Below, in pieces: positions 1-45,202 of a stretch of DNA of 45,202 nucleotides (position 1 is its first letter; the number at the start of each line of letters is the position of its first letter). This DNA is from Bacteroidota bacterium (GTDB taxonomy: Bacteria > Bacteroidota > Bacteroidia > Chitinophagales > Chitinophagaceae), in NCBI GenBank assembly GCA_023392185.1, contig JAEVZP010000147.1:1-45202 (forward strand), given 5' to 3'. The notes under the pieces were generated by a model, which was not told the DNA's origin, ran no database searches, and worked only from the letters and a program-made list of their open reading frames with translations. Position numbers and translations under genes: made by a program.

Positions 1-373
1 AGTCCAGTGCATCGGTGGTATTGGCAATATCGCCGACGGCCGCCACACCGGCGTCATACATATTCCGGAAGGCGGCCTGCCGGGCAGCTGTTTTCTCGGT
101 TTCGGTCGCGTCGCGGCGGGTCATTACCTGCTGGAGAAACACCATCAGTCCCGTGCCTTCCGGAATGGCCCCTTTCATGTGGGACAGTTCCAGATGACAA
201 TGGGCATTCACAAAGCCCGGACATAAAATGCCTTTTTCAAACACACGATCCGGAACTTTTGGGGAACCGGGCGGGTGAATGGCGATTACAACCCCGGCTT
301 CGTCGGTCTCCAGCAAACTGCCTTCGGGTACAAACCGGTAGCCGTCGTGAATCTGGGGCGCGGAAAAAATCAT
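1..373 (-). CDS. amidohydrolase-superfamily protein (deaminase-like), N-terminal part; continues beyond the left edge
   Basis: Absent from the ORF track because it runs off the window. A reverse-strand ATG at 371-373 opens MIFSAPQIHDGYRFVPEGSLLETDEAGVVIAIHPPGSPKVPDRVFEKGILCPGFVNAHCHLELSHMKG... GFVNAHCHLE is the HxH metal-binding motif of amidohydrolases. There is no stop codon down to position 1. Confidence 0.7.
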   Translation of the reverse strand, partial: MIFSAPQIHDGYRFVPEGSLLETDEAGVVIAIHPPGSPKVPDRVFEKGILCPGFVNAHCHLELSHMKGAIPEGTGLMVFLQQVMTRRDATETEKTAARQAAFRNMYDAGVAAVGDIANTTDALD

Positions 374-423
374 GGTACAAAGATGGCTGTTTTCAAAAAA
401 GAACGCGCCGTGTGGGGTTGTTC

Positions 424-453
424 CAAAAAAAGAACGCGCCTCCTGGCGCGTTC
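424..453 (-). terminator. intrinsic terminator downstream of rluB (GAACGCGCC hairpin followed by a T-run on the minus strand)
   Basis: The stem is GAACGCGCC (432-440) / GGCGCGTTC (445-453) with a 4-nt loop. On the minus strand it is followed by TTTTTTTGG. This hairpin is also one member of a two-locus repeat (see findings). Confidence 0.65.
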
Positions 454-580
454 CTACGTGTTTCTGCTTTTAAGGGTAGAAAAAACATCTGATCGCTACC
501 TCTTTTGTCCGGATCCCTGGCCTTCTATGTATAGGGCGAATGCAATTCGCCCCAACCCAAAATGTTCTTTTGTCTTTCGT

Positions 581-2338: not shown

Positions 2339-2359
2339 GTGATGTTTCCGGCACCAAAA

Positions 2360-2393: not shown

Positions 2394-2406
2394 GGGGAAG
2401 GTCGGT

Positions 2407-2426
2407 TTTCCGGAAATTTCCGGAAA
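2407..2426. repeat. TTTCCGGAAATTTCCGGAAA: perfect 20-nt palindromic dimer of the window-wide TTCCGGAA motif
   Basis: Read directly from the sequence. It ends 4 nt from the stop codon of the YceI-like gene (2431-2433). Confidence 0.95.
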
Positions 2427-2430
2427 CAAG

Positions 2431-3221: not shown

Positions 3222-4736
3222 ATGCGTCGGATTCCGGGTGTGATATGGTTGCTAATCCTGATCAGTGCGCTGGTGTTTACGGCCGGTTCGCTGCGCGTCT
3301 TCGATCATTTTCCCGACTCGGTGCACCGGTGGCGGCAAAGTGATTGCGCGGCCTACACCAAAACATTTTACCGAAACAATACCGGCCTGCTCACGCCCGG
3401 CACCTTCAATCTGGCAGGACAAAATGGGCGGGTGGCAAGCGAATTTCCCATTATCTATTACCTCAGTGCACAGATTGAAAAAGGGGTGGGCGAGCATTAT
3501 TGGGTCAACCGTAGTATCAATTTCGGGTTGTATTTTCTGGGTCTGTGGGCCTTGCTGGCCACTTTCACCCGCTATCTGTTTCGGGGGAAACGCTTTGCGG
3601 CCTTCTGCGTGGTGGCCTTGCTGGCGGCTTCGCCTTTTTATTACTACTATGCCCTTAATTTTCTGCCCAATGTTCCGGCTATCAGCCTGAGCTTTATCGG
3701 GCTTTATTTTTTGTTTGCTTTCCGGGAAAAGAGACGCTGGCTTTCGCTCCTGGGCGGCACTCTTGCGTTCACGCTGGCCTTGCTTCTGAAGCCTACCGAC
3801 GGCGGCATACTCCTGGGCGCTTTTGGATTGATGTCGGCCACACTGTTTTTGAAAAAGCCGCTTACGGGCCAGGAAAATATGCGCTTCTGGGTCGGACTGG
3901 TGGCTGCAACTGTTGTTGTGCTGCTGGTCAATTATATGTGGATCCGGTATGTGAATGCTTATAATGATCTCAATGGCAACCACCAGAACCTGATGTCTAT
4001 TTATCCGATCTGGGACATGGAGCCGGATGTGCGCAATTATACTTTCAAGCGCATCCTGACCGAATGGCGGCTTGATTTTCAGCATGTACTGGTCCTGGCG
4101 ACCCTCCCTTTTCTGCTGTTGATTTATGTGTGGAAATGGCGCGCTTTGGAACCGCGTTTTAAGTGGCTTACTTTCTATGTTGCGCTGCTGACGATGCTCT
4201 ACAGCGTATTTTGGTTTAAAGCCTATACCGACCACGATTATTATCAGCTGCCGCTGGTCCTGCCCATGGTTTTGGGGGCGGCCACGGTGATAGAATACCT
4301 GTCGCGCGCGGCCGGCAGGCAGCGATTGCCGATTGGCAGGAGCCTGCTGGCGACCGGCCTGGGTGCGTTGGTAGTCATCTCTGTATTCTACAACGGGAAA
4401 GCGCAGCAACGCCGCTATGCCGATCCGGGTCATATCCACCCGGTTCCGGAACTCTATGAGGCAGAGGCGTATCTGAACTCGATCGGTGTAACGCCGGACA
4501 AAATCGTTGTGTGTGCGCCCGACCGCAGCCCCAATATTTCCCTCAATGCCATCAACCGCTATGGCTATACTGAAGAGTTCAACGGTCCTTTTTACAACAT
4601 CAACACTTTTAAAGAAAGAGGCGCCTCCTATCTGATTCTGCTCGATACGGCTTACCTGTCCGATCCGCTTTATATACCGCATATTCAGAAAAAAGCCGGG
4701 CAATATGGCCGGGTCATGGTATTTGATATCCGCTAA
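3222..4736 (+). CDS. polytopic integral membrane protein, possibly a GT-C-type glycosyltransferase
   Basis: The 504-aa ORF starts at an ATG. It has about 10 or more hydrophobic helices followed by a soluble C-terminal domain. The family assignment rests on architecture only; I recognise no diagnostic motif. Confidence 0.6.
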   Translation: MRRIPGVIWLLILISALVFTAGSLRVFDHFPDSVHRWRQSDCAAYTKTFYRNNTGLLTPGTFNLAGQNGRVASEFPIIYYLSAQIEKGVGEHYWVNRSINFGLYFLGLWALLATFTRYLFRGKRFAAFCVVALLAASPFYYYYALNFLPNVPAISLSFIGLYFLFAFREKRRWLSLLGGTLAFTLALLLKPTDGGILLGAFGLMSATLFLKKPLTGQENMRFWVGLVAATVVVLLVNYMWIRYVNAYNDLNGNHQNLMSIYPIWDMEPDVRNYTFKRILTEWRLDFQHVLVLATLPFLLLIYVWKWRALEPRFKWLTFYVALLTMLYSVFWFKAYTDHDYYQLPLVLPMVLGAATVIEYLSRAAGRQRLPIGRSLLATGLGALVVISVFYNGKAQQRRYADPGHIHPVPELYEAEAYLNSIGVTPDKIVVCAPDRSPNISLNAINRYGYTEEFNGPFYNINTFKERGASYLILLDTAYLSDPLYIPHIQKKAGQYGRVMVFDIR

Positions 4737-4815
4737 GATTAGATCCGGTGTTGCTTTCTATTTCCGGAAAATTGTGCTTCCGGAAGGAACTTTGACGCTT
4801 TCCCAAGAGTAACCC

Positions 4816-6033: not shown

Positions 6034-6741
6034 ATGGATTATCGTGAAATTGTGGCCGTTACCGGAATCGGCGGTCTGTACCAACTGGTCACCTCCAAAG
6101 GCGACGGCGCTATCGTGCGCTCGCTGGCCGACGGCAAAACTGTTTTCGTTTCGGCGCGCAAGCATCAGGTGACGCCCATCGAAAGCATTGAAATCTATAC
6201 GAACGGCGACAATGTGCGCCTCCATGAGGTGCTGCAAATGATGAAAGACGCCGAAGCCGAAACGCCGCTTCCGGAAACCAAAGACCCGAAGGTGGTTGCA
6301 GCGTATTTCAGCACCGTTTTTCCGGAATATGACCGCGACCGCGTGTATCCTTCCGACCTCAAAAAGCTGGTGAAGTGGTATGGCCTGCTCAAAACCGCCG
6401 ATCTGCTCGACTTCAGTCGTTATCAGCAGGCGGAAAATGCAGGAGATCCTATGGAAACAGAAGCACCGATGCCGCTGGAAGGACAGGTGCAGATCAAAGA
6501 GCATAACAAAGACCACCACGTAGATGACGAAGCTGCTTCGCAATCTGTTGAGGGTGGAAATCCCGACGTGAAGAAGGCCCCGGCTAAAAAAGCAGCCACC
6601 AAAAAAGCAACGGAAACGGATACCGACAGCGAAGCAGCACCGAAGAAAACACGCGCAAAGAAAACCGCAGAGCCGGCTGCTGAAGGCGAAGAAGCCCCGA
6701 AAAAAACAAGCCGGAAAAAGAAAACCGACGAAGAAGCCTAA
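6034..6741 (+). CDS. DUF5606-like protein with a lysine/alanine-rich histone-H1-like C-terminal tail
   Basis: The N-terminus MDYREIVAVTGIGGLYQLVTSKGDGAIVRSLADGKTVFVSARKHQVTPIESIEIY matches the Bacteroidota DUF5606 pattern as I remember it. The C-terminal ~70 aa are KKAPAKKAATKKAT...KKTSRKKKT. An intrinsic terminator follows. Confidence 0.7.
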   Translation: MDYREIVAVTGIGGLYQLVTSKGDGAIVRSLADGKTVFVSARKHQVTPIESIEIYTNGDNVRLHEVLQMMKDAEAETPLPETKDPKVVAAYFSTVFPEYDRDRVYPSDLKKLVKWYGLLKTADLLDFSRYQQAENAGDPMETEAPMPLEGQVQIKEHNKDHHVDDEAASQSVEGGNPDVKKAPAKKAATKKATETDTDSEAAPKKTRAKKTAEPAAEGEEAPKKTSRKKKTDEEA

Positions 6742-6777: not shown

Positions 6778-6812
6778 AAGTCCTTTCTGCCCCGGCAGAA
6801 AGGACTTTTTTT
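6778..6812 (+). terminator. intrinsic terminator of the DUF5606-like gene
   Basis: The stem is AAGTCCTTTCTGCC / GGCAGAAAGGACTT and is followed by TTTTT. Confidence 0.8.
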
Positions 6813-6879
6813 AGCTCCGGTAAGTCGTGTTCCGGGCTACATTCCGATTAAAAAAGCTTTTTTCCGGAAGTATAATGCC

Positions 6880-7385: not shown

Positions 7386-7406
7386 GGGTGTTTTTCCGGA
7401 AACCGG

Positions 7407-8096
7407 CTAGCCGTTGCGATGGTCGCTTTCCACCACGCCGTCGCGGATGCGGACAATGCGGCGCGTACGCGCGGCGATGTCTTCTTCGTGGGTCACCAGC
7501 ACCACGGTATTTCCGGAATGGTGGATGGCTTCAAAAAGATCCATGATCTCGATACTGGTTTTGGTATCCAGATTGCCGGTGGGTTCGTCGGCCAGGATGA
7601 GCGCCGGATTGTTGATGAGGGCACGGGCAATGGCCACGCGCTGACTTTGTCCGCCGGAAAGCTCGTTGGGCCGGTGGTGCGCCCGCTCGGCGAGGCCTAC
7701 TTTGGCCAAGCCTTCGCGCGCCCGCGCTTCGCGCTCTTTAGCGCCTACGCCGGCGTAGAGCAAGGGAACAGCCACGTTTTCCCAGGCAGAAAGGCGGGGC
7801 AGCAGGTTGAACTGCTGGAATACAAAGCCGATTTCGCGGTTGCGAATAGTCGCCAGCTCGTCGTCGTCGAGGGTTTTTACCGGCTGCCCGTTGAGCACAT
7901 AAGTTCCGGCATCCGCTGTGTCGAGGCAACCGATGATGTTCATCAGCGTGCTTTTTCCGGAACCGGAAGGCCCCATCAGCGCCACATATTCGCCCCGGTC
8001 GATGCTCAGGTCGATGCCTTTGAGCACCTGCAGGGCCTGATTACCCATGAAATAGGCTTTTTGGATACCGGAAAGAGAAATAACAGCGGGCGTCAT
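7407..8096 (-). CDS. ABC transporter ATP-binding protein (LolD/MacB/FtsE-like)
   Basis: Walker A is GPSGSGKST, the ABC signature is LSGGQSQR, and Walker B is [12 protein letters not shown]. The protein is 229 aa and starts at an ATG. No permease gene lies adjacent. Confidence 0.9.
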
Positions 8097-8351
8097 CGTT
8101 GGGGTAAAGTTTCAGAAAGCGGGGTACAAAAACCAAATTTCCCGCCCCTGAATTCCGGAAATTCCAATGTGCTTCACAATTGCCCGATACCCGGTGCTTT
8201 GTTCCTTTTGCAGAAAAGGATTTGAGCGAATAAACGGTTCTTTTCTTCCTCCAAAAAGAAAAAGGAGCGCCTTTTCAGGGGCACTCCTTTCGGACCGGAG
8301 GAAGGATGAAATTTCCGGAAAACAGCCTTTCCTTTCCGGAAAAAAACGACC

Positions 8352-9104: not shown

Positions 9105-10757
9105 TCAGGCAGGCCTTTCATCGGTTTCGGCCAGTTCTTCCAGCAGCGTCACACCGCGCCCAGAGGTCTGCACCGGTTTTTCCGGTCTTTCGCTCAACAG
9201 GTCTTCGAAGGAAGTCGCATGCGGCTCAATGCCGGGAACCTTATAAACATCCCGAAACCCGATCAGCGACAGTTTCACGCCTTTCTTTTCCGCCATTACC
9301 GCATACTCCCGGATGATTTCCAGCACATCGAAGTCGATATACTCTGTGTGAGTTGCATCGAGAATCACAGCACTATTTTCCGGAATGGCGTAAAGCGTTT
9401 CGCGGATGGAGGCTTTGTTGAGAAAAGAAACTTCCTGGGCCAGCGAAAGCCGGATCACCTGTCCGTTGGAGTAACTGCTGCGCTGGTAGTAGTAAGGAAT
9501 GCGCAGGTTTTGGCGCAGCGTGTAAAAGATCGCCACCGCCAGGCCGATCCCCACGCCGGTCAGCAGGTCAGTCACGACCACACCTACGGTGGTCGCCAGG
9601 TATGGAATCAGCTGCGGCCAGCCGCCTTCGTGGTAGAGGTGACGGGCAATCGCCGGACGGCAGAGCCGGAAACCGGTAAAAATGAGGATGGCCGAAAGGC
9701 TGGCTTTGGGAATGTGATTGAGCACGGCCGGAAGCGCCGCTACACACAACAACAGAAGCACGCCGTGAAAAATGGTGGATCGCTTGGAGGTAGCCCCGGC
9801 GTTGATATTGGCCGAGGAGCGCACGATGACCGAGGTGATGGGCAGGCCGCCCAGCAGTCCGGAGATGATATTGCCGATGCCTTGCGCGCGCAGTTCGGCG
9901 TTTCCGGAAGTGTTGCGCTTCATTGGGTCAAGCTTATCAGTGGCCTCAATGCAAAGCAGGGTTTCGATAGAAGCCACGGCGGCGATAATCAAGCCGGTCG
10001 TCCAGACTTCCCAACGGGCAAAACCGGAAAAATCGGGACTGCTGAACTGTGCAAAGAAATCGCTGAACTGCTCCGGCACCGGCAGGCGCACCAGATGGGT
10101 GGCAGCCAATGCGAGCGACGAATCGACTGCTTTCAGGGCTTCGTTGATGCCCACCCCAATCAAGACCACAAGCAGCCCGGTAGGAACCATTTTGAATTTC
10201 CGGAGTGGCCTGGTGAGCCACAAAAGCAACAGCGTCAGGCCCAGGAGCGAAATCAGCACTGCCGCCGGCTCGATCTTCTGAATCTGACCGGCCAGATTGT
10301 CCCACTGAAAGCCGGTTTCGCCTTCGCTCATCTTGGTGGTGGAATACCCAATGGCATTGGGTATTTCCTTGATGATAATGGTGATACCGATACCGGCGAG
10401 CATGCCTTCGATAACAGCAGAAGGAAAATACAGCGCGAGGCCGCCTGCTTTGGCAAAGCCGAGCAGCAGCTGAAAAACACCCGCCAATATCACAGCACAA
10501 AGAAAAATTTCAAAAGACCCGAGCGTCGCCAGGGCGCTGACCACAATGGCGATCAGTCCGGCAGCCGGACCGCTGACGCTCAGCTGGCTGTGACTGAAGA
10601 AACCAATAACAATCCCACCGATTACACCGGCAACGATACCGGCAAAAGGCGGCGCGCCGGACGCCTGCGCAATGCCCAGACACAAGGGCAGCGCAATAAG
10701 AAATACAATAAGGCCCGCAAGGACATCCTTGCTTAAAGAAGGCTTTGAAACAGACAT
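9105..10757 (-). CDS. SulP-family anion (sulfate/bicarbonate) transporter with C-terminal STAS domain
   Basis: The ORF 9105..10883 is trimmed to the ATG at 10755-10757 (MSVSKPSLSKDVLAGLIVFLIALPLCLGIA). It has a multi-TM SulP core and a C-terminal STAS-like segment (AVILDATHTEYIDFDVLEIIREY). Confidence 0.88.
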   Translation of the reverse strand: MSVSKPSLSKDVLAGLIVFLIALPLCLGIAQASGAPPFAGIVAGVIGGIVIGFFSHSQLSVSGPAAGLIAIVVSALATLGSFEIFLCAVILAGVFQLLLGFAKAGGLALYFPSAVIEGMLAGIGITIIIKEIPNAIGYSTTKMSEGETGFQWDNLAGQIQKIEPAAVLISLLGLTLLLLWLTRPLRKFKMVPTGLLVVLIGVGINEALKAVDSSLALAATHLVRLPVPEQFSDFFAQFSSPDFSGFARWEVWTTGLIIAAVASIETLLCIEATDKLDPMKRNTSGNAELRAQGIGNIISGLLGGLPITSVIVRSSANINAGATSKRSTIFHGVLLLLCVAALPAVLNHIPKASLSAILIFTGFRLCRPAIARHLYHEGGWPQLIPYLATTVGVVVTDLLTGVGIGLAVAIFYTLRQNLRIPYYYQRSSYSNGQVIRLSLAQEVSFLNKASIRETLYAIPENSAVILDATHTEYIDFDVLEIIREYAVMAEKKGVKLSLIGFRDVYKVPGIEPHATSFEDLLSERPEKPVQTSGRGVTLLEELAETDERPA

Positions 10758-11365: not shown

Positions 11366-11385
11366 TTTCCGGAAATTTCCGGAAT
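11366..11385. repeat. TTTCCGGAAATTTCCGGAAT: dimer of the TTCCGGAA motif
   Basis: Read directly from the sequence. It lies 13-14 nt beyond the stop codon of the T9SS-cargo gene. Confidence 0.95.
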
Positions 11386-13919: not shown

Positions 13920-13998
13920 TGTTTGAAAAAGAAAAAAGGTGTTGAAAGCAGGCGACAGGGCGGCTGCGATTGAATTTTGTAAGAAAATTTCCGGAAAC

Positions 13999-19881: not shown

Positions 19882-19979
19882 TGCGCCACAGCGGTGTTAA
19901 AAGATATGCCGCCGGTAACGGTGGGCGCCATTGCCCCCTGCTTTCCTACCTTTGCGGCCTTTATTGTACCCCGTATTTC

Positions 19980-21809: not shown

Positions 21810-21854
21810 TCAGATTCCGTTTTCCGGAAATCTCCGCGAAAAACTTTCACCCAA

Positions 21855-24912: not shown

Positions 24913-24943
24913 GATTTCCGGAAATTATTGTTTTAAAATCCCC

Positions 24944-31019: not shown

Positions 31020-31281
31020 AAGGCTAAGGTAGGGTGGGGGCAAAATTTTTTTGATTTTGGAAAATGTTTTCCGTCGTAACATTGCTTCATCATTTCCTAT
31101 GGTGACGGATTTGGCAAAGCAATGAGCCGCGCGAAAAACTTTTTCTCCGCACCCCCACTGTATTTTCCGGAAATCACACCCTGACGCCTTCCCGTTTTTC
31201 CACTGAGGCAGGCCTGAAGCGAACGTGTCGTTCCCGATTTTCCCTTTCGTTACATTTTTATTTTACCGACGTCATTTTTTC

Positions 31282-33894: not shown

Positions 33895-33927
33895 AAGTGT
33901 TTTTTGGAAAGAAGTTTCCGGAAAAAG

Positions 33928-34548: not shown

Positions 34549-35601
34549 TTATTCCCCCAAAATGCGCAATTGCTTTTGAACGCTGCTCAGGTGAATCAGC
34601 TGAAACAAATCGGCGACCTCAGAAGGCTCCAGGCCGTGCAGCAGTGCCCATTCGCTGCGGGTACGCAAAATCTCGCGCCAGCGCTCCGGCTGAAAAGCCG
34701 TCATGCCCTGTGTTTTTTTGATCTCGCCGATTTGCCGCGACAGGTCAAAGCGGCGGCCCAGCAGGTGCACCATCTCAGCGTCAATGGCGTCCATTTGACT
34801 GCGCAGGGCCGAGAGGCGTTCGTCGCCTTCGCAAGGGGTGCGTCGCACCACCAGCCGCGACAAAATCTGCCGCAGCGTTTCGGGGGTCACCTGCTGTGCG
34901 GCATCGCTCAGTGCCTTATCAGGATCGGCGTGGGTTTCAATCATCAGCCCGTCGAAGCCGAGGTCAAGCGCCTTTTGCGAAACCGGCTCAATGCCCGGGC
35001 GATTTCCGGAAATATGGCTTGGGTCGCAGATGATTTTGAGGTCAGGGCGGCGGCGGCGCAGCTCGATTGGAACGGCCCACGACGGCGGATTGCGAAACGG
35101 CGAAGCAGCGCCATAACCCGGAAAGCCGCGGTGAATGGCCCAGACGTCGGCAAAGCCGGCGCGCTCCATGCGCTCGATGCCGCCCAGCCACAGATCGGCA
35201 TCGGGAATCACCGGGTTTTTAACCAAAACCTGCACGGGTGCGCCGCGCAAAGCATCCGCCAGTTGTTGCACCGAAAAAGGATTGACCGTTGTGCGTGCGC
35301 CAATCCAAACGGCATCCACACCGGCTTTGAGGGCGGCTTCCACATGCCCGGCGTCGGCCACTTCTACCGCTACCGGAAATCCGTACTGTTCTCGTACTTC
35401 TGTCAGCCAGGAAAGGGCTTCCGGGCCAACTCCTTCAAAAGCACCTGGCCGGGTGCGCGGCTTCCAGACACCCGCCCGGAAGAAGCGCAGGGGCAGGTCT
35501 TCCATTCCGGCTGCCGTCGCCAGCACCTGTGCGCGCGATTCGGCGCTACACGGGCCGGCAATAAGGGTGAAATCGGGCGCTGCGGAATCAATAGGGTCCA
35601 T
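34549..35601 (-). CDS. bifunctional 3-deoxy-7-phosphoheptulonate synthase / chorismate mutase
   Basis: The ATG is at 35599-35601. The DAHPS type I-beta body includes LIAGPCSAESRAQVL and FRAGVWKPRTRPGAFEGVG. The C-terminal chorismate mutase type II segment is LRSQMDAIDAEMVHLLGRRFDLSRQIGEIKK. Confidence 0.85.
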   Translation of the reverse strand: MDPIDSAAPDFTLIAGPCSAESRAQVLATAAGMEDLPLRFFRAGVWKPRTRPGAFEGVGPEALSWLTEVREQYGFPVAVEVADAGHVEAALKAGVDAVWIGARTTVNPFSVQQLADALRGAPVQVLVKNPVIPDADLWLGGIERMERAGFADVWAIHRGFPGYGAASPFRNPPSWAVPIELRRRRPDLKIICDPSHISGNRPGIEPVSQKALDLGFDGLMIETHADPDKALSDAAQQVTPETLRQILSRLVVRRTPCEGDERLSALRSQMDAIDAEMVHLLGRRFDLSRQIGEIKKTQGMTAFQPERWREILRTRSEWALLHGLEPSEVADLFQLIHLSSVQKQLRILGE

Positions 35602-35765: not shown

Positions 35766-36860
35766 ATGCGCTATTACATTCTTGCCGGCGAAGCCAGCGG
35801 CGACCTGCACGGCGCAGCCCTGATTCGCGCCCTCAAAGTTGCTGATCCGGAGGCCGAATTCCGGGCGTGGGGCGGCGATCGTATGGAAGCAGCCGGAGCG
35901 CCGCTCGTGAAGCATTACCGCGATCTCGCTTTTATGGGTTTTGTGGAAGTGGTGAAACACCTCGGCACCATTCTGCGCAACATCCGGCTGGCCAAGGAAG
36001 ACATTACCGCCTACCGCCCCGATGTGTTGATTCTGATCGACTATCCGGGTTTTAATATGCGCATTGCCAAATGGGCTAAGGAAAGGGGAATCCGGGTGGT
36101 GTATTATATCTCGCCGCAGATCTGGGCCTGGAAGGAAGGCCGGGTCAAAGCCTTGCGCCGCGATGTAGATCAAATGCTGGTGATTCTTCCTTTTGAAAAG
36201 GATTTTTATAAAAAACACGATATGGATGTGGCTTATGTGGGCCACCCCCTGATTGGCGCGATAGCGGCGCAAAAGCAAAAACCGATAGACGATTCGCTGC
36301 GGTTCGAAAAGCCGGTAATTGCGCTTTTGCCCGGCTCGCGCGCGCAGGAAATCCGCCAGAAGCTGCCCCTTATGCTGTCGGTAGTAAGGCACTTTCCCCA
36401 CCACCAGTTTGTAGTGGCCGCTGCTCCGGCACAGCCGCTTTCGCTCTACGAAGAGTTGGTAGGCGACCTGCCGGTGGAGATTATTTCCGGAAAAACCTAT
36501 GAGATTTTGCAGGTAGCAACCGCAGCGCTGGTAACGAGCGGCACGGCCACACTGGAAACCGCGCTTTTTGGCGTACCGCAAATTGTGTGTTATCGCGGCA
36601 ACCCCATTTCCTACCAGTTGGCAAAGCGCCTGATCAAGGTGAAATACATCTCGCTGGTAAACCTGATTCTGGATGCGCCGGTGGTTCCGGAACTGATTCA
36701 GGATGCGCTCAACGAAACCAATCTCACCGGGGCGCTTCAAAAACTAACAGATTCCCATTCCACCGAACGAGCCCAGATGCTGGCGCAATACCAAAAGCTG
36801 TGGAACCTTTTGGGCAGCACCGATGCTTCGGCAGAAGCAGCGCGGCACATTGTAGCGTGA
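35766..36860 (+). CDS. lpxB: lipid-A-disaccharide synthase
   Basis: The ORF is trimmed to the ATG at 35766 (MRYYILAGEASGDLHGAALIRALK, the canonical LpxB N-terminus). Also present are LLPGSR and TSGTATLETALFGVPQIV. Confidence 0.9.
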   Translation: MRYYILAGEASGDLHGAALIRALKVADPEAEFRAWGGDRMEAAGAPLVKHYRDLAFMGFVEVVKHLGTILRNIRLAKEDITAYRPDVLILIDYPGFNMRIAKWAKERGIRVVYYISPQIWAWKEGRVKALRRDVDQMLVILPFEKDFYKKHDMDVAYVGHPLIGAIAAQKQKPIDDSLRFEKPVIALLPGSRAQEIRQKLPLMLSVVRHFPHHQFVVAAAPAQPLSLYEELVGDLPVEIISGKTYEILQVATAALVTSGTATLETALFGVPQIVCYRGNPISYQLAKRLIKVKYISLVNLILDAPVVPELIQDALNETNLTGALQKLTDSHSTERAQMLAQYQKLWNLLGSTDASAEAARHIVA

Positions 36861-37108: not shown

Positions 37109-37789
37109 ATGACCGAAGATTCCGGAATGCTTTACCTTGTGCCCACGCCAATCGGCAATCTGGGTGACATGACCTACCGGGCGGTGAACGTGCTGAAAAA
37201 GGCCGACCTGATTTTGTGTGAAGACACCCGAACCTCCGGCGTCCTGCTCAAACACTACGAGATTGCCCGGCCCCTGGCTTCGTATCACTTGCACAACGAA
37301 CACCTGCTGACCGAAAAATTTGCGCAGCAGATCGCCGACGGCGCCACGATTGCGCTCATTACCGATGCCGGCACGCCGGGCATTTCCGATCCGGGCTTTC
37401 TGCTGGCCCGTGCCTGTCGCCGGGAGGGGCTGCGGGTAGAATGCCTGCCGGGCGCAACGGCTTTTGTGCCCGCGCTGGTGCAAAGCGGCCTGCCGGCAAG
37501 CAGTTTTGTTTTCGAAGGCTTTCTGCCGGTAAAAAAAGGCCGGCAAACCGCCCTGCAACGCCTGGCTGAAGAAGAAAGAACCGTAATTCTCTACGAATCG
37601 CCCCACCGGCTGGTAAAAACACTTACCGAAATGACGGAACATTTTGGCCCCGAACGACCGGCCTGTGTATGTCGGGAGCTGACGAAAAAGTTTGAGGAAA
37701 GCCGCACCGGAACCCTCGCCGAGCTGGCCGCGCACTACGAAAAACAGCCGCCCAAAGGCGAGATTGTACTGGTGATAGGCGGGAAATAA
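37109..37789 (+). CDS. rsmI: 16S rRNA (cytidine1402-2'-O)-methyltransferase RsmI
   Basis: MLYLVPTPIGNLGDMTYRAVNVLKKADLILCEDTR is the typical RsmI / tetrapyrrole-methylase-fold N-terminus. I prefer the ATG at 37109 over the GTG at 37082, which lies inside the inverted-repeat element. An ATG at 37127 is also possible. Confidence 0.85.
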   Translation: MTEDSGMLYLVPTPIGNLGDMTYRAVNVLKKADLILCEDTRTSGVLLKHYEIARPLASYHLHNEHLLTEKFAQQIADGATIALITDAGTPGISDPGFLLARACRREGLRVECLPGATAFVPALVQSGLPASSFVFEGFLPVKKGRQTALQRLAEEERTVILYESPHRLVKTLTEMTEHFGPERPACVCRELTKKFEESRTGTLAELAAHYEKQPPKGEIVLVIGGK

Positions 37790-37898
37790 AGAAAATTTCC
37801 GGAAAATTCTTCCGCGACGCGGTTTGGCGTGTCTGCACCTGAAATTTGCAAAGAGCGGGCCGAAGGCTGTTTTGGCCTTTCTACCGTAAATTTCGCTT

Positions 37899-39686
37899 AT
37901 GTCCCAGTCGTTTTTTGCTGCCGCCGACCTGCCCCGGCAGTTCTCGCTTTTCTTCCAGGATGAAGGTTTTCAGCCTTTTGCGCACCTGCTTTTTCGGAAA
38001 TTAAGCGAAGGCAACGTCTGCATCCACATCGATGATCTGGAGCGGGAAAAACAAAGCCTGCCGGAAAGCTATCAGGAAGCCTTGGCTGCCGGCCGCTGCT
38101 CGCCCTACAATGCACGGCTCGTGGGCGGAGAAACCGACCTGCGCAAACCCTTTATCCTGCACAACGACCGGCTGTATCTGCAACGCTATTTCCGGTATGA
38201 AACCATTTGTGTAGAGCGCATCCGCCGCTTTGCCGAGGAAGAAGAGACTTGCCTGCCGGAGCGGATTGAAGCCCTTCAGGCGTGTAAGGATTTGGTGGAA
38301 AAGCTTTTCGGGAAGGCAGCTACCGGCCCTGACTGGCAACTAACGGCCGCCCTTTGCGCGGCGCTCCAAAACTTTACGATTGTTACCGGCGGACCGGGCA
38401 CGGGCAAAACGACTACCGTAGCCAAACTGCTGGCCCTGCTGTTCACCCTGCAACCTACGTTGCGCGTGGCCCTGGCCGCGCCTACCGGAAAAGCCGCTGC
38501 CCGCATGGCCGAGAGCCTGCGAACAGCGCCGCTGCCCGATGAATTTGAGCCCCTGCGCGATCATTTTGCGGCGCTTTCGCCCGCCACCATTCACCGGCTC
38601 CTGAAGGCACAACGCCATTCGCCTTATTTCCACCACGATTCCGGAAATCCGCTGCCTTTCGACCTGATTATTGCCGATGAAAGCAGTATGATTGATGTGG
38701 CCTTGTTTGCCAAGCTGCTACAAGCAATCGGGCCGGGCACCCGCCTGATTTTGCTGGGCGATAAAAGTCAGCTGGCCTCGGTAGAAGCCGGCAGCATGTT
38801 TGGCGATTTGTGCGGTGCGCTTTCTCACACCAACCGGTTTTGCTCCCGGTGGCATCAGCTACTCAACGATCTTTTCCCCAAAAACGCCGCTCCTTTGCCC
38901 GAAGATGCCGTTTGTGAAGCAGAAAGCCACCCGCTGTTTCGCCGCATCATCACCCTGCAGGTGAGCCACCGCTTCCGCGACGATGCCGGTATCGGGCGCT
39001 TTAGCAAGGCGGTGATTCAAAACGATGAAGTCGCGCTGCAGCAGTTTCTGGAGGAGAATAACGATGTGCAGGTATGCCTTGATGCCGACCACAGCAAAGC
39101 GGTTTTTGAAAGCTTTATTTCCGGGTATGAAGCCTTTATCCGGGAGCCCGATATCCGCACCGCGCTACAAAAGTTAGGCAAATTGCGTGTGCTCGTCGTG
39201 ACGCGGCAGGGCCCTTATGGACTGGCGGATACCAACAGCGCTATCGAAGCGTTTTTGCTGGGCAAAGGCTTGCTGCGACCGCTGCGGGGGCATTACGAAA
39301 ACCGGCCCGTCATCCTCTCCAAAAACTACCCCGACCTGGGCCTTTTCAACGGCGATACCGGGATTGTGCGCCGCGACGAAAAAGGGATTTTGCGGGTTTG
39401 GTTTGAAGGCGCGGGAGGAGAGCTGCGCGCTGTTTTGCCGGGATACCTGCCGGATGCGCAAACGGCCTTCGCCATGACAGTTCACAAAAGCCAGGGATCG
39501 GAGTTCAACGAAGTGCTTGTGCGCCTGCCCGACACCGAAGACATGGCCCTGCTAAGCCGGGAATTGCTTTATACGGCGGTAACCCGCGCCCGCGAAAAAG
39601 TATGGATTCAGGGAAGTGGCAGTGTCGTCCGCGCCGCTGCCGCCCGGAAAATCGCCCGTGCTTCCGGGATTCACGAGCGGTTCTAA
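37899..39686 (+). CDS. recD: exodeoxyribonuclease V alpha subunit RecD
   Basis: Walker A is TGGPGTGKTTTVAKLL. The DExx box is IADESSMID. The C-terminal SF1 motif is AMTVHKSQGSEF. The protein is 595 aa and is followed by recC and recB. Confidence 0.88.
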   Translation: MSQSFFAAADLPRQFSLFFQDEGFQPFAHLLFRKLSEGNVCIHIDDLEREKQSLPESYQEALAAGRCSPYNARLVGGETDLRKPFILHNDRLYLQRYFRYETICVERIRRFAEEEETCLPERIEALQACKDLVEKLFGKAATGPDWQLTAALCAALQNFTIVTGGPGTGKTTTVAKLLALLFTLQPTLRVALAAPTGKAAARMAESLRTAPLPDEFEPLRDHFAALSPATIHRLLKAQRHSPYFHHDSGNPLPFDLIIADESSMIDVALFAKLLQAIGPGTRLILLGDKSQLASVEAGSMFGDLCGALSHTNRFCSRWHQLLNDLFPKNAAPLPEDAVCEAESHPLFRRIITLQVSHRFRDDAGIGRFSKAVIQNDEVALQQFLEENNDVQVCLDADHSKAVFESFISGYEAFIREPDIRTALQKLGKLRVLVVTRQGPYGLADTNSAIEAFLLGKGLLRPLRGHYENRPVILSKNYPDLGLFNGDTGIVRRDEKGILRVWFEGAGGELRAVLPGYLPDAQTAFAMTVHKSQGSEFNEVLVRLPDTEDMALLSRELLYTAVTRAREKVWIQGSGSVVRAAAARKIARASGIHERF

Positions 39687-39786
39687 AATGGAACGCAGAT
39701 AAAACGGGTTCAGACGGATTTACACGGATTTTTTATCTTCAAAAAGCCCCTTTTTCCGGAATTCTGTTTGTACTTCTTCTCTTGAT

Positions 39787-39831: not shown

Positions 39832-39847
39832 CAAATTCTCCTAAACC

Positions 39848-42800
39848 ATGCCCATTTCCCTTCAAGTTTCGCACTCTTTGCGCGAACTGGCCCGCCACTT
39901 CACCCGTGATCTTTCCGGGCGGCAGCGGGGCGTGTTCGATGCCGATTATATCGTTACGCAGACGGAGGGCATGAATAACTTTCTGCGCCTGCAGCTGGCC
40001 CGCCACACCGGCATTGCTGCCAACTGCAAATACCTCAGTCCCAACGAGGTGATTTTGCAGGCCTACCGATTGCTTGAGGACGAAACGCAGCGGACCGTCT
40101 CGGTGCCGCAGCTGCGCTGGCAGTTGTATCAGGCCCTGGGAAGCGAAGATTTCCGGAAAAACTTCCCGGATGTAGCCGGATACTATCAAAACAACGAAGC
40201 CGACAGCGACCTGAAGCGGCTGGAACTGGCCGAAAAAGTGGCCGTTCTTTTCGACCAATACCAGATTTACCGACCAAAGCTGATCCGGAAATGGAACCGC
40301 CCGCAGTCCGACCCGGAAGACTGGCAGCAGGCGCTGTGGCAGGCCGTGATGCAATTAACCGAAGGCCGCCTTTCCGACAAAACGCGCATGGGCGACGCCA
40401 TTCTCGAAGCGCTCCGCAATCCCGATAATGTGCGGTATCTGCAACGTCACATGCCAGTGATTCATGTGTTCGGCATTTCGATTATCACCGATTATCACGT
40501 GTCGCTGCTGCATGCCCTGGGCAAGGTGATTGATGTGCGCTTTTACCTGCTCGACCCGGCAGCGGGCGTGTATTGGTATGAAGACCGCAACGAAAAACAA
40601 CTTGCGATCCTTCAAAGCAAAGGCATTGTCATAGAAGGAGCCGAAGGTTCCGGAAATCCGCTGCTCACCAGCTGGGGCCGTGTGGTGCAGGACACCTTCC
40701 GGCTGCTGTTTCGCCACGATGCTTTTCTGAATGCTTATGAAGTGCTGCCCGCCCCGGAGCCTGAGCCGCAAACCCTACTCCAGAAAGTACAGGCCGATAT
40801 CCGTAACGGTGCTGACCGGCACAGTCGCTATTCGCTTTCTGCAACGGACCTGGCCGACGGATCCCTCAGCGTGCATTCCTGCTACACGCCGCTGCGCGAG
40901 GTAGAAGCTTTCTACAATCACCTGATGCTGCTATGGGAGAAAGGAAACGTTTTTTCGCCGCAGGATGTGCTGGTGCTGGTCTCCGACATCAACACCTACG
41001 CACCGTATATCAAAGCCGTGTTCGACAATGCGCCGTACCGCTTTCGCTATACGCTTTCCGACGAAAACCCGCAGGGGGCCGATACGCTCACCGATGCACT
41101 CGTGGCCGTGTTGCAGCTCGATGCCGAGAATTTCAAACCCGAAGAAGTGGCGCAGCTGCTGGAATTCTCCGTCATCCGCGACCGCTTCGGGCTGCATGAC
41201 ACCGCGCTGATCCGCCGGCTGATCCGGGATGCCAACATCCGCTTTGGCCTCGACGGCGACACAGAAGACGACACCCGCTTCGTGAGCTGGCGCTACGGTC
41301 TGCAACGCATTGTGTATGGCGTGTGTATGCAGGGCGATGACCTTTGCACCACCGAAAGCGGCGAAGACCTGCACCCGCTCGACTGTGTGGAAGGCGGCGA
41401 CGCCGAGACGGCCATTCGCTTTGCTTATTTTGCCGAGATGCTGATGCAGCATCTGCAAAACCGCCACCGCGCACGCAGCATTGCCGAGTGGGTGGGCTAC
41501 GTGGAGCGGGTCATCAGTGACCTGATTGCCGACACCGGCGAAGAGATAGACGAAGAGCTGCAAGGGCTTTTAGCACAGCTGGGTGGCTACAACGCTGCTT
41601 TTGAATACATGCCGGAGCCCATTTCCTACGAGGTATTCAGCCGCAGCTTTTTGCAGGGGCTAAAGGGCGCTTCGCAATCCGGCACTTTCGGGTATGGCGG
41701 CATCACGTTTTGCTCTATGGTGCCGATGCGCAGTGTGCCGTTCAAAATCGTGGCCTTGCTGGGCATGGATGCCGATAAATTTCCGCGCCGGGATTCGGTA
41801 GCCTCTTTCAACAAAATGGCCGCGCAGCGCGAAGTAGGCGACCGGAATGTGCGCGACAACGACCGTCACCTCTTTCTCGAAACGGTGCTTTCGGCCGAAG
41901 CGTATCTCTACATCAGTTATCTCGGAAAGGCAGCCAAAGACAATACACCACAGGCACCGAGCCCGCTGGTGGAAGAACTGCTGGATTATATCGAAGACGG
42001 GTTGCCGAAGGCAGAACAGCCGCTCCGCAATTTTGTGGTGCCGCATCCCCTCCACAGCTTTAGTGCCCACTACAACAACGGCGACGCCCGCCTGCGCGAT
42101 TTTCTGCGCCTCGAAGCCGGCTCTACTGCCCAATGGATTCTGGAAGGAAAAGAAAGTGATACCACCATTCCGACGGAAATCGCGCTGCACAGCCTGAGCA
42201 GCTTTGCGACCAATGCCCTGCAAACCTGGTATCGCCACCGCCTGGGCATTGTATATGATCCGTCGGAGGCGGCTTTGTCGGATCTGGAGTTGCTCGCTCC
42301 CAATAATCTGGAGCGCAGTTTTCTGAAAACCAGCTTGCTTTCTTTGGAAGCCGCCGATGCCGAAAGCTGGCGGCTGCAAAAGGTGCGCCGGGGTGCCTTG
42401 CCTTTGCGCAGCATGTCGGTGGTAGTTATGGAAGCCCTGGTGGAAGAAGTGGGCGGGGTGAAAGCGATGCTGAAAAACCTGCTGGGTGATGCACAGCCTG
42501 TGAATGTGGCGGTGTCGGTGGAGTTACCCGGCGGGCTCCGAATTTCCGGAAATCTAACGGTTTATGGCGAAGACAAGCTGTGTTATCCCTGCTTTTCCAA
42601 AAGCGAAGCGCACCACCGCATGAAAGCGGGTCTGACTTATCTGCTGGGCGTAGGCGCAGGCGTGGTGCGCGAATTGCATTTTATATCGCAGAAAGAAGAA
42701 AAGGTTTTTCCGGCGGCAGCCCTTTCGAGGGAAGAAGCGGTCCAAAAGCTACAGGCCATGGTGGAACTGTATCTCGAAGGCCGGGAAGAGCCCTTTGTTT

Positions 42801-43027: not shown

Positions 43028-43056
43028 AATTTTTCTCTGGATACCGTGTTTTCGGG

Positions 43057-43136: not shown

Positions 43137-43207
43137 CTCTGTTGATTAACACTAAGGGCCTATGCTAAAAATAATGAATTGTGAAAGAAGCTGGTTGTCT
43201 TACAGTT

Positions 43208-43269
43208 CTTTTGTCACCCCGGAACGGGGTCTCACAATATTCCAGGATCCCGTTCCGGGATGACAAAAG
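43208..43269. repeat. MITE/REP-like palindromic element, copy 2
   Basis: The sequence is CTTTTGTCACCCCGGAACGGGGTCTCACAATATTCCAGGATCCCGTTCCGGGATGACAAAAG. It has the same termini and two-hairpin layout as 34296-34368. Confidence 0.8.
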
Positions 43270-43359
43270 ATTATGTCCGAAACAACATAATCCGATTTTC
43301 CGGAAATCCGCTCCAAAAGTCCGCAGTTTCCCCTCTGAAAAATTTATATCCCAATAGTC

Positions 43360-45202
43360 ATGTCTGCTTCCATTACGTATCTGCCTTTCGACGCCCGCAC
43401 CGTGCCACTTCAGGGCAGCAACCTGATTGAGGCGAGCGCCGGCACCGGAAAAACCTATTCCATTGCGATTATGGTGCTGCGCCTTGTGGTGGAAGAACGC
43501 ATGCCGCCCCAGCAGATTTTAATGGTGACCTTTACGAAGGCGGCGGTTGCGGAACTAAGTGAGCGGGTGCGCCTTTTCATCCGGAAAGCCTATAAATGCA
43601 GCCGGGGCGAAGACTGCGACGACGCGCTGATTGGCCGGATTGTGGCCGAAGCCCAGGCCGGGCCCGACGGCGACACGGTAGAAAAAACCCTGCACCAGGC
43701 GGTCTTGCTCCTCGACGAGCTGCCGGTCCAGACGATTCATGGCTTTTGCCAAACAACGCTGAGCGAGTTTGCTTTTGAAACCGCCCATGCCTTTGCGCCG
43801 GAAATGCTGCCGTCGCTCAAGCCGCTGGCCAAAACGCTTTTTCATCAGTTCTGGCGTCGCCGCATCAACACGCTGCCGCCTGCTTTGCTGCGCCAGCTTG
43901 ATGTGGAAGCGTTGCGCGACAGCCTCGGTCAGACGGTGGAAAGCCACCTGGACAACCGGCTGTATTGGGGTTTTGAAGCGGGGAAAGATTATACGCTGCG
44001 CCCGGAGGAGATAGAAGACTGGCTGGTGCGGATTGGCGAAAGCGGCGAAATTCCGGAACTGCTGGACAAGGCCTACAGCGGCTTATACAACGCTTATCAG
44101 GCCCGCAAGGCCAACGGCCCGAAGCTGGGGCATATCGAGGCGGATAAACGGCCTTATATGCATCCCAAAAGTGCTTTTCTCTCCAAGGTAGAAGGGGATT
44201 ATGCTTTTATCGAAAAGAATTTTGGGGAGACATTGCCTGCTATTGAAGCGCTGTTGGAAGCGGTGGAAGATCGGGAAGAAGTGTTTGCCGAAATCCAGCA
44301 GCGGCTCCGCTACTGGGCCATTTCGGAGATTCTTCAAAAAATAGAAATCATCAAGAAAAAGGCCAACCTGATTACCTTTTCCGACATGATTTCGGAGCTG
44401 CACGCCGCGCTCACCCGCCCCGATAACGAAGCGCTCGTGAACGGGTTACGCGCCAAATACAAAGCAGCTTTCATCGACGAGTTTCAGGACACCGATCGTC
44501 GGCAATACGAGATTTTTAATGCCGCTTTTGGGGAAGAAACAACCTTGTTTCTGATCGGCGACCCCAAGCAAAGCATCTATGGCTTCCGCACGGCTGATGT
44601 GGCTACATATTTTGAAGCCCGCAGCCGCGTAGCGCATGTGTATAGCATGGCGCAGAACTTCCGCTCCGCCGGGCGGCTGATCGAGGCGATGAACACCTTT
44701 TTCAAGCCGTCGCCCGATTTTCAAACCTTCGCCTTTGGCCCCGACGAAGAAGGCTTTGATTATATCCCGGTGAAGAGTCCTGAAAACAACCCGAAGGAAG
44801 GCGTTTTTTGGGGGGAAGTGGGGGAACCGTGTATTGTTATCAGCGAGTCGGAAAACAAGAACGATGTTCACGAGAAAGCAGCTCTGCAAATAGCCGGCTT
44901 GCTGCGCAATGGTTTTAAGATCAAGGAGAAAGGAATTTTCCGGAAAATCCGCCCGTCCGACATTGGGGTTTTAGTACGAACCGGCAAAAACGGTCAGGAG
45001 TTTAAAGCCCGGCTGGCAGCGCTCAATATTCCGGCGGTGTACCGCGACGAAGCCCGCATCCTGGACACGCTGCAGGCCGCCGAACTGGTGCTGTTGCTAC
45101 AGGCCCTTTTAGAGCCTTCAGGTGCCACGATCAACCGCGCTTTGCTCAACACGCTGTTGCCGTTCAACAACGCCGCGCTTCTGCGGCTCAACGACGAAGA
45201 AG
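43360..45202 (+). CDS. recB: exodeoxyribonuclease V beta subunit RecB (UvrD-type helicase-nuclease), N-terminal ~614 codons; continues past the right edge
   Basis: Absent from the ORF track because no stop codon falls within the window. My translation from the ATG at 43360 is MSASITYLPFDARTVPLQGSNLIEASAGTGKTYSIA (Walker A). Further motifs are VQTIHGFC, AFIDEFQDTD (motif II) and LIGDPKQSIYGFR (motif III). The frame is open to 45202. Confidence 0.85.
   Translation, partial: MSASITYLPFDARTVPLQGSNLIEASAGTGKTYSIAIMVLRLVVEERMPPQQILMVTFTKAAVAELSERVRLFIRKAYKCSRGEDCDDALIGRIVAEAQAGPDGDTVEKTLHQAVLLLDELPVQTIHGFCQTTLSEFAFETAHAFAPEMLPSLKPLAKTLFHQFWRRRINTLPPALLRQLDVEALRDSLGQTVESHLDNRLYWGFEAGKDYTLRPEEIEDWLVRIGESGEIPELLDKAYSGLYNAYQARKANGPKLGHIEADKRPYMHPKSAFLSKVEGDYAFIEKNFGETLPAIEALLEAVEDREEVFAEIQQRLRYWAISEILQKIEIIKKKANLITFSDMISELHAALTRPDNEALVNGLRAKYKAAFIDEFQDTDRRQYEIFNAAFGEETTLFLIGDPKQSIYGFRTADVATYFEARSRVAHVYSMAQNFRSAGRLIEAMNTFFKPSPDFQTFAFGPDEEGFDYIPVKSPENNPKEGVFWGEVGEPCIVISESENKNDVHEKAALQIAGLLRNGFKIKEKGIFRKIRPSDIGVLVRTGKNGQEFKARLAALNIPAVYRDEARILDTLQAAELVLLLQALLEPSGATINRALLNTLLPFNNAALLRLNDEE

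Follow-up and report, generated by a model that had tools for sequence, protein, structure and literature searches.

A clade-specific, highly iterated palindrome with a TCCGGA core in uncultured Chitinophagaceae, and a tentative role for a TCCGGA methyltransferase

The 45,202-base contig JAEVZP010000147.1 of a Bacteroidota bacterium from the Chitinophagaceae (assembly GCA_023392185.1), analysed here over its whole length and referred to below as the window, is densely populated by the 8-base palindrome TTCCGGAA. We are highly confident that this word is a real, clade-specific highly iterated palindrome that acts at the level of DNA. On our best reading it is a second, independent case, in a new phylum, of the palindromes typified by HIP1 (GCGATCGC) in cyanobacteria, with a likely link to methylation or restriction at its core, TCCGGA. 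Its agent may be a TCCGGA methyltransferase, a tentative proposal that we hold at somewhat less than even strength; the whole statement, a lineage-specific highly iterated palindrome together with this methyltransferase mechanism, comes only slightly nearer to even.

A pattern search found exactly 57 copies of TTCCGGAA in the window, the number that the first-pass annotation of this DNA had reached by hand; 56 of its 57 coordinates were correct, and the remaining one, 23827, should read 23828. In 100 dinucleotide-preserving shuffles of the window the word occurred 1.34 times on average and at most 6 times. Markov models predicted ~1.3 (order 1), 2.7 (order 2) and 5.4 (order 3) copies per strand, and with both strands counted 114 copies were observed against 2.5, 5.5 and 10.8 expected, respectively. 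After correction for composition, on which the earlier reading had been staked, TTCCGGAA ranked first by z-score among all octamers at Markov orders 1, 3 and 5, in this one window. The excess over chance was 20-45-fold for the octamer and 4-7-fold for the hexamer TCCGGA, which, at 77 copies versus 18.5 expected (order 2), was the most over-represented palindromic hexamer of the window (G+C 54.9%). Many other 6-bp palindromes were strongly avoided there: GGTACC occurred once (16 expected), CCGCGG five times (40 expected), and ACATGT and CCTAGG were absent.

The most frequent decamer of the window was TTTCCGGAAA, with 30 copies. The earlier statement that most copies of the octamer extend to TTTCCGGAAA is thus barely true, as 30 of 57 (53%) are extended on both sides; the preceding base is T in 41 of 57 and the following base is A in 38 of 57. 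Outside TTTCCGGAAA there was only a weak A/T preference, such that the preferred form in the sub-lineage of the window is (A/T)TTTCCGGAAA(T/A), and the words are perfectly palindromic up to 10-12 nt. The farther flanks, beyond +/-2 nt (~10-12 bp in total), are unrelated; therefore TTCCGGAA is a short word and not a piece of a longer repeat. In 87.8 kb the exact octamer had 110 copies, compared to 112 for all 24 one-off variants summed, and these deviants clustered at the outer positions (77 at positions 1 and 2 versus 35 at positions 3 and 4). Because of this clustering, and because one relative (PMG_148, see below) keeps the hexamer with looser flanks, TCCGGA is the conserved core of the motif.

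Copies were placed on Pfam-supported gene models, in which gene starts are approximate and stop codons exact. Coding sequence held 30-31 copies in ~38.4-38.7 kb (0.78-0.80/kb) and non-coding DNA 26-27 copies in ~6.6-6.8 kb (~3.9/kb), which matches the earlier split of 32 and 25. All three reading frames were used (F-R-K/N 6, x-P-E 8 and x-S-G-x 17), and the three examples first given for them, FPE in the GH3 gene at 24457, FRK in yidC at 20745 and SGK in lpxB at 36485, are right. We then permuted codons among identical amino acids, which keeps proteins and codon usage fixed. In 200 such synonymous shuffles the coding sequence of the window contained 2.4 octamers (maximum 7) compared to 30 observed, and 16.9 hexamers compared to 45. 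The same control gave 6.4 hexamers against 24 observed in a close relative (locus L001), and 10.7 against 46 in PMG_148 (locus L003). Ser-Gly was spelled TCC-GGA in 19 of 88 cases in the window, where 2.5 were expected. The excess over synonymous shuffles and the Ser-Gly spelling show that the pressure acts on DNA, as the first-pass annotation had argued. TTCCGGAA is not a protein motif, a dispersed repeat or an effect of composition; it is written into DNA wherever tolerated, through synonymous and non-synonymous codon changes and in all three frames.

YidC homologues place the window among metagenome-assembled genomes of uncultured Chitinophagaceae or 'Sphingobacteriales'. Loci around YidC and RecC were fetched from relatives and combined within each lineage; the relatives are all metagenome-assembled contigs, with at most two loci (up to ~45 kb) per lineage. 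PMG_148 is GCA_004144185.1 and UBA1952 is GCA_002336725.1. The densities were:

Window lineage (the window): octamers 1.26/kb, hexamers 1.70/kb
Relative with 97% YidC identity (L001, L191): octamers 1.30/kb, hexamers 1.80/kb
UBA1952 (L005, L194): octamers 1.30/kb, hexamers 1.63/kb
OH_PBB_261 (L006, 8.4 kb only): octamers 1.66/kb, hexamers 2.02/kb
PMG_148 (L003, L193): octamers 1.24/kb, hexamers 2.84/kb, flanks looser
19 outgroups with YidC identity of 69% or less (L009-L025, L069, L070; 348 kb): octamers 0.01/kb, hexamers 0.16/kb (55 versus 54.8 expected)

As the hexamer is at expectation in the outgroups and the clade loci are rich in it, the motif is confined to a narrow clade with YidC at least 81% identical. 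Sharing among relatives, which the first-pass annotation had raised, thus extends to the lineages of this clade, one of them purged of the motif, and not to the 19 outgroups. The idea of a broad genome signature did not survive, since the motif is found only in the narrow clade and one member of that clade is nearly without the hexamer. In the motif-rich group the octamer occurs about once per gene, and its density is near-constant (1.24-1.30/kb) in four lineages whose genes are only 61-77% identical at the nucleotide level. The flanks of the motif form 'dialects' that vary between lineages.

The purged lineage (loci L002/L007 and L192; sample ERZ26165376, Chitinophagaceae genome CBDFFP01) had no octamer and only 2 copies of TCCGGA versus 17.9 expected in 45 kb (L002 and L192, P = 3e-6). 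A total purge was rejected: the first locus had no TCCGGA and the second had 2, giving a ~9-fold depletion. Half-sites (TTCCGG or CCGGAA) occurred at 2.3/kb in this lineage, compared to 0.53/kb in the outgroups and ~4.8/kb in the motif-rich lineages, and its first locus contained 25 copies of TTCCGGBA or the complement, ~10 times the expectation. At orthologous motif sites it carried one-off forms that destroy only the hexamer, namely TTCCGCAA in yidC (synonymous, with F-R-K kept), ATCCGGCA and TTTCCGGCAT in recC, and GTTCCGGTTG in recB. By identity of RecC, RecB and RecD the purged lineage is nearer to the window than PMG_148 is; the natural reading would therefore be that the motif is ancestral and was lost in this lineage, nested within the clade. 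Two independent gains of the motif are a possible alternative.

Further palindromes were missing from the purged lineage (L002/L007), with CGGCCG at 0 versus 15, CAGCTG at 0 versus 9, and CTGCAG, GGATCC, GGTACC and CGATCG all at 0, which is the usual footprint of restriction pressure. The avoided set differs between relatives, which suggests heavy and shifting restriction-modification pressure in the clade. The purged lineage thus resembles known restriction-site avoidance, and other palindromes are avoided in all these genomes; in the window, in contrast, TCCGGA is over-represented against this general avoidance.

Site conservation and turnover depended on distance. The window and its 97% relative (~86-95% nucleotide identity) have nearly all sites in common. 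Aligned hexamers were conserved in 15 of 20 cases versus ~8.6 expected from other hexamers in the same alignments, a small sample in which only the intergenic stratum (5 of 5, P = 0.03) was individually significant; conservation above background is therefore suggestive. At larger distance most sites were lineage-specific. Gains occurred with amino-acid changes in RecC (NNGD to NLPE, GAGV to ASGM), RecB (AFLS to QFRK) and RecD (LLGK to LFRK, VIQN to LIRN), and between a new site and its orthologue 4-6 of 12 positions differed. In recD the window has lost one site through a C-to-T change (TTTTCCGGAAAT to TTTTTCGGAAAT).

The motif piles up just after stop codons. In the window, the 50 nt downstream of stops contained 16 octamers in 1.26 kb (12.7/kb), compared to 1.8/kb in the 50 nt upstream of starts and 2.0/kb in the rest of the intergenic DNA. 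When genes were called independently in motif-rich loci (155.6 kb), the corresponding densities were 7.8/kb after stops, 2.2/kb before starts and 2.1/kb in other intergenic DNA, with 0.97/kb in coding sequence. TCCGGA lay within 50 nt past the stop in 34 of 101 genes of these loci, mostly in the first 20 nt, at variable distances of 1-49 nt from the stop codon. The density was uneven among loci, at 8-13/kb in four, 3/kb in L194 and 0 in L193. For the YceI, carbonic anhydrase, RecJ and Rho genes the motif follows the stop codon and precedes a distinct GC-rich hairpin with a T-run; the motif itself is not the terminator. Post-stop pairs in the window comprise three 18-bp doublets, TTCCGGAAATTTCCGGAA, and two further pairs 16 and 21 nt apart; since the word is self-complementary, such pairs can form hairpins. 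Rfam and tRNA scans of the window found no RNA family and no tRNA. It may be that the spacer past the stop is just the DNA under the least constraint, in which any drive would accumulate sites fastest. As a positional clue this concentration is new: for HIP1, Xu et al. 2018 (PMC5861425) reported neither a positional signal nor a positional function at the level of genes, in an analysis of non-coding DNA that started 10 bases downstream of the stop.

All copies in the window are listed below; their strand is given as '.' throughout.

63..70: copy in the left edge, without annotation
158..165: copy in the left edge, without annotation
2408..2425: doublet TTCCGGAAATTTCCGGAA, two copies in 10-nt register, 6 nt past the YceI stop, ahead of terminator hairpin 2393-2360
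4444..4451: copy in PMT_2-like coding sequence (CDS), frame V-P-E
4762..4785: two copies 16 nt apart, which could form an 8-bp hairpin, 26 nt past the PMT_2 stop and 31 nt ahead of the HemW start
6269..6276: copy in DUF5606 CDS, frame L-P-E
6320..6327: copy in DUF5606 CDS, frame F-P-E
6862..6869: intergenic copy, 121 nt past the DUF5606 stop, beyond its terminator 6778-6807
7394..7401: post-stop copy, 6 nt past the ABC ATPase stop
7511..7518: copy in ABC ATPase CDS, frame H-S-G-N
7955..7962: copy in ABC ATPase CDS, within Walker A motif G-S-G-K
8153..8160: intergenic copy, 57 nt ahead of the ABC ATPase start
8313..8341: two copies 21 nt apart, hairpin-capable, 11 nt past the carbonic anhydrase stop, ahead of terminator 8291-8260
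9378..9385: copy in SulP CDS, frame I-P-E
9902..9909: copy in SulP CDS, frame T-S-G-N
11367..11384: doublet TTCCGGAAATTTCCGGAA, 15 nt past the stop of a Por-tail protein gene
13989..13996: post-stop copy, 3 nt past the SusC-like stop, kept in L001
15254..15261: copy in SusC-like CDS, frame F-R-N, lost in L001 (TTCCGAAA)
17263..17270: copy in a hypothetical 365-aa CDS, frame L-S-G-N, kept in L001
18187..18194: intergenic copy in a divergent region, kept in L001
18773..18790: doublet TTCCGGAAATTTCCGGAA, 36 nt past the stop of a 78-aa open reading frame (ORF), kept in L001
19157..19164: intergenic copy, hexamer kept in L001
20745..20752: copy in yidC, F-R-K, kept in all five motif-rich lineages; synonymous TTCCGCAA in the purged lineage
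21822..21829: post-stop copy, 13 nt past the yidC stop, present in L006 and missing in L005
22923..22930: copy in the GH3 ORF, within an N-terminal extension that is probably non-coding, as homology to L005 begins at 23173
23687..23694: copy in GH3 CDS, frame L-S-G-I
23828..23835: copy in GH3 CDS, frame I-S-G-I
24080..24087: copy in GH3 CDS, frame N-S-G-I
24457..24464: copy in GH3 CDS, frame F-P-E
24916..24923: post-stop copy, 21 nt past the recJ stop, ahead of a long terminator hairpin
28199..28206: copy in the second YkuD-domain (L,D-transpeptidase) gene, 28131-29963, frame L-S-G-K
29372..29379: copy in the same YkuD-domain gene, frame V-S-G-N
29560..29567: copy in the same YkuD-domain gene, frame F-R-K
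30039..30046: intergenic copy, 76 nt ahead of the start codon of the same YkuD-domain gene
31001..31008: copy in FabG CDS, frame L-S-G-K
31165..31172: intergenic copy between divergent fabG and rho
31757..31764: copy in rho, N-terminal extension, frame I-P-E
33477..33484: copy in rho, frame G-S-G-K
33916..33923: post-stop copy, 22 nt past the rho stop, immediately ahead of a terminator hairpin
35004..35011: copy in a hypothetical 379-aa CDS, frame I-S-G-N
36485..36492: copy in lpxB, frame I-S-G-K
36685..36692: copy in lpxB, frame V-P-E
37120..37127: copy in the rsmI-like gene, frame D-S-G-M
37797..37804: post-stop copy, 8 nt past the rsmI-like stop
38639..38646: copy in recD, frame D-S-G-N, missing at the orthologous position in the purged lineage
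39754..39761: intergenic copy, 68 nt past the recD stop
40151..40158: copy in recC, frame F-R-K
40648..40655: copy in recC, frame G-S-G-N
42544..42551: copy in recC, frame I-S-G-N; TTTCCGGCAT in the purged lineage
43298..43305: intergenic copy between recC and recB
44051..44058: copy in recB, frame I-P-E
44938..44945: copy in recB, frame F-R-K

The gaps between copies had a coefficient of variation of 0.78 versus 0.97 for random placement (P ~0.04, from only 51 clusters), and the largest gap matched chance expectation. By Pfam, the gene content of the window is typical of Bacteroidota, with Por secretion tails, a SusC-like protein (924 aa), DUF5689, YidC, a GH3-family protein, RecJ, FabG, a long Rho, LpxB, an RsmI-like methylase and RecD-RecC-RecB. 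Rho (31225-33894) has 889 aa and its RNA-binding and ATPase domains begin at about residue 526, leaving a very long N-terminal extension that bears the motif copy at 31757. The ORF of an RluB-like pseudouridine synthase (581-2149, 522 aa) has its S4 and PseudoU_synth domains from about residue 290, and so has either a long N-terminal extension or a mis-assigned start. To its left, 580 bases have no assigned gene, and terminator-like hairpins of both strands overlap at ~430-462. Between the 78-aa ORF and yidC, in the interval L001:7774-9948, L001 has a gene for a 576-aa amidohydrolase; in the window this gene is missing and the interval 19220-19927 consists of ~700 bp of unrelated DNA with short ORFs only and no significant tblastn match. 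The ribonucleotide reductase gene of L001 (15209-19807) encodes a 1532-aa product with an intein and LAGLIDADG homing-endonuclease domains.

A second word, TGCCGGCA (core GCCGGC), was the next most frequent palindromic octamer in the window, with 8 copies. It occurred five times in L019 and five times in L070:1-3418, a 3.4-kb contig of a relative with 69% YidC identity and without TTCCGGAA, where two of the copies make a terminator-like hairpin. TGCCGGCA may be an alternative iterated palindrome of a neighbouring lineage, judged on a very small sample.

What gives rise to the excess of TTCCGGAA? One candidate is a DNA-uptake or self-recognition sequence with no role for methylation: a competence or recombination protein would prefer TTTCCGGAAA, and uptake bias followed by recombination would bring the word to ~1/kb in DNA that tolerates it, much as in Neisseria and Haemophilus. 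We consider this rather unlikely. The word does resemble the uptake sequences of Neisseriaceae (DNA uptake sequence, DUS) and Pasteurellaceae (uptake signal sequence, USS) in its uniform density of ~1.25/kb (~1/kb in theirs), clade-specific 'dialects', use of all three frames with amino acids that accommodate the motif, enrichment in non-coding DNA, hairpin-capable pairs just downstream of genes, and one-off variants that are enriched in a graded way rather than depleted (PMC1939737); in addition, HIP1 itself is now proposed to be an uptake sequence (bioRxiv 10.64898/2026.06.24.733823). Known uptake sequences, however, are non-palindromic, asymmetric 9-12-mers (PMC1939737) with a known receptor and competence system, and none has a relative with a hexamer-specific purge. 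A lost preference predicts slow decay, not a near-complete and hexamer-specific purge (2 versus 17.9), and the spacing of the copies, only weakly more even than random, also speaks against uptake. Bacteroidota have no known uptake specificity. The pile-up after stop codons, its skew to the first 20 nt, the position of copies upstream of real terminators and the 10-nt doublets, which lie on one helical face, would instead fit a target bound by an abundant protein dimer, or an RNA or DNA element acting at 3' ends (for termination, 3'-end processing or gene coupling), with the genic copies as spill-over. This is less probable again, as about two-thirds of the copies are genic and were forced through codon and amino-acid changes, the distance to the stop codon is not fixed, L193 lacks the enrichment and L194 shows it only weakly, one palindromic 10-mer by itself is unable to make a stable hairpin, Rfam gave no match, and the spacer may be merely the least constrained DNA.

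Very-short-patch repair, in which a 5-methylcytosine methylase at TCCGGA and a Vsr-like endonuclease would turn T:G mismatches of near-motifs into the motif, had been suggested in the first-pass annotation. Such repair is known to make the Dcm site CCWGG mildly over-represented in E. coli; the TCCGGA core contains CpG, and the recD loss in the window is a C-to-T change. We nevertheless regard it as very improbable, because the deamination neighbours of the motif were not depleted relative to outgroups. In the motif-rich clade the observed/expected ratio was 1.96 for TCTGGA/TCCAGA (0.71 in outgroups) and 0.84 for TTCGGA/TCCGAA (0.72 in outgroups); at the octamer level TTCTGGAA/TTCCAGAA occurred 6 times versus 3.1 expected and TTTCGGAA/TTCCGAAA 12 times versus 5.9. 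The 20-45-fold excess is also far above the known effects of such repair, and new sites differ from their orthologues at too many positions (4-6 of 12) to fit it. There is next to no chance that the word belongs to a miniature mobile element or dispersed repeat, or that it arises from composition or codon usage, and these readings are refuted for the window by the unrelated flanks, by in-frame copies within conserved genes (including a Walker A motif), and by the Markov and synonymous-shuffle controls, which do not yield the count. Small dispersed repeats (repetitive extragenic palindromic sequences, REP; enterobacterial repetitive intergenic consensus, ERIC; miniature transposable elements) differ in the same way from TTCCGGAA, more than half of whose copies are genic.

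A dispersed family rich in TTCCGGAA arrays does exist on other metagenome contigs. In a metagenome scan for the 18-mer doublet, 99 of 120 loci (L071-L190) belonged to a low-GC (~41%) dispersed repeat family with hardly any long ORFs; 91 of these 99 small JGI metagenome contigs share repeat segments, which hold 354 of their 390 octamers. The arrays have 10-, 11- and 22-nt spacing and conserved flanks (...agattggaataaat...), as in L105:456-790, L087:8-82 and L084:2454-2520. This family looks like eukaryotic host DNA and is unrelated to the clade and its bacterial motif. About six doublet contigs, with a GC content of 0.52-0.555, resemble the clade. As the scan mostly recovers unrelated repeats, the word alone is not diagnostic. 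Human-gut matches to the doublet came down to one locus, with TCCGGA at its order-2 expectation, and were set aside as chance. Among viral contigs with two TTTCCGGAAA within 30 nt (42 loci), nearly all had only the selected pair and were likewise rejected as chance matches. One viral contig, L035:1-9623 (IMGVR_UViG_3300009714_000118; 9.6 kb, GC 0.537), has 7 TTCCGGAA and 15 TCCGGA and is possibly from a phage or prophage of the clade that shares the motif of its host. An ORF of L035 with PCQ and ENV motifs had no Pfam match and so is not a recognisable methyltransferase.

We favour, tentatively, a methyltransferase as the agent. TCCGGA is a known type II restriction-modification specificity (BspEI/AccIII/Kpn2I). 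The symmetric 6-bp core and the sharp specificity point to a dimeric sequence-specific enzyme or protein for TCCGGA, most likely a TCCGGA-specific DNA methyltransferase in the motif-rich lineages. A methyltransferase is favoured because the core has this type II specificity, because the sister lineage avoids this very hexamer, and because cyanobacterial highly iterated palindromes co-occur with methyltransferases of the same specificity. A process that reads the (methylated) site would then favour its gain or retention, as proposed for HIP1 and its replacement palindromes; candidates would be repair with a strand bias, or a preference for self-marked DNA in uptake or recombination. Sites would build up until balanced by purifying selection, and in the purged lineage an activity that cuts TCCGGA may have selected them away. 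For HIP1, the drivers proposed are a repair ratchet (Elhai 2015, PMC4390886), selection (Xu et al. 2018, PMC5861425) and enhanced uptake and recombination of methylated DNA (preprints, bioRxiv 10.1101/2024.09.10.611283, bioRxiv 10.64898/2026.06.24.733823), and methylated HIP1 raises transformation (bioRxiv 10.1101/2024.09.10.611283). Xu et al. 2018 set the rate at which HIP1 sites are lost against that of matched control palindromes.

Several points weigh against a methyltransferase. A methyltransferase-motif screen of the fetched clade loci (up to ~45 kb per genome) found no plausible methyltransferase, and no restriction enzyme or Vsr gene was seen in them; the only true N6-methylase in the screen was on an unrelated viral contig, L054. 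No one-off neighbour of the motif was depleted, which argues against simple biased point repair. Methyl-directed mismatch repair is not known in Bacteroidota, so Elhai's ratchet would need another reader here. The uneven post-stop enrichment could reflect a function unrelated to methylation. Finally, the comparisons draw on metagenome-assembled relatives and on approximate gene starts in the window.

The likeness to HIP1 suggested in the first-pass annotation stands. Both are palindromic octamers that occur about once per gene, tens of times over expectation (PMC5861425, PMC4390886; 57 versus 1.3 in shuffles here). An excess of at least ~15-fold is characteristic of the class. Both are read in every frame of coding DNA and also occur outside genes, and both have deviants at the outer positions around a 6-bp core of the type II methyltransferase type. 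HIP1 is conserved above background between relatives; the small sample here (15 of 20 versus ~8.6) is at most suggestive of this. TTCCGGAA is not HIP1 proper: it has a different sequence with an A/T-rich extension, belongs to Chitinophagaceae of the Bacteroidota rather than cyanobacteria, is restricted to a narrow clade where HIP1 is phylum-wide, and is strongly enriched after stops. It also resembles the alternative palindromes of cyanobacteria described by Elhai 2015 (PMC4390886), namely GGCGCC in Calothrix PCC 7103, rCCGGy in Oscillatoria PCC 10802 and GCsGC in Cyanothece PCC 7822, each of which co-occurs with a methyltransferase of that specificity. These too are lineage-specific replacements with methyltransferase-site cores, and a given site may be in excess in one strain yet depleted in relatives that have the enzyme, which parallels our motif-rich and purged lineages. 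They are, however, tied to identified methyltransferase genes, and Elhai's model uses a methylated GC dinucleotide, of which TCCGGA contains none.

A search of the searchable literature found no earlier report of the TTCCGGAA/TTTCCGGAAA motif or of a highly iterated palindrome in Bacteroidetes, an absence that is no proof of novelty; matches to the words were confined to primers and eukaryotic binding sites. For three decades HIP1 has lacked an explanation, in part because it is near-universal in one phylum and offers few natural contrasts. The window adds an independent example from Bacteroidota, with a different sequence and, as its core, a textbook type II restriction-modification site. For metagenomics the octamer offers a sharp criterion by which to bin members of this clade and to recognise DNA that they acquired horizontally. 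More speculatively, and on balance improbably, highly iterated palindromes may be a general and repeatedly evolved outcome, in which a lineage takes one methyltransferase site as a self-mark that is held at ~1.25/kb by machinery reading it in DNA exchange or repair. A switch between mark and restriction target would then isolate close relatives, and the post-stop pile-up would be either the safest parking place or a second, gene-end function. Since four lineages carry the motif at equal density and one has been purged of it, the clade is a natural gain/loss experiment, in which a comparison of a few genomes and methylomes could directly test the competing ideas: a ratchet tied to a methyltransferase, selection acting on uptake or recombination, or a structural role.

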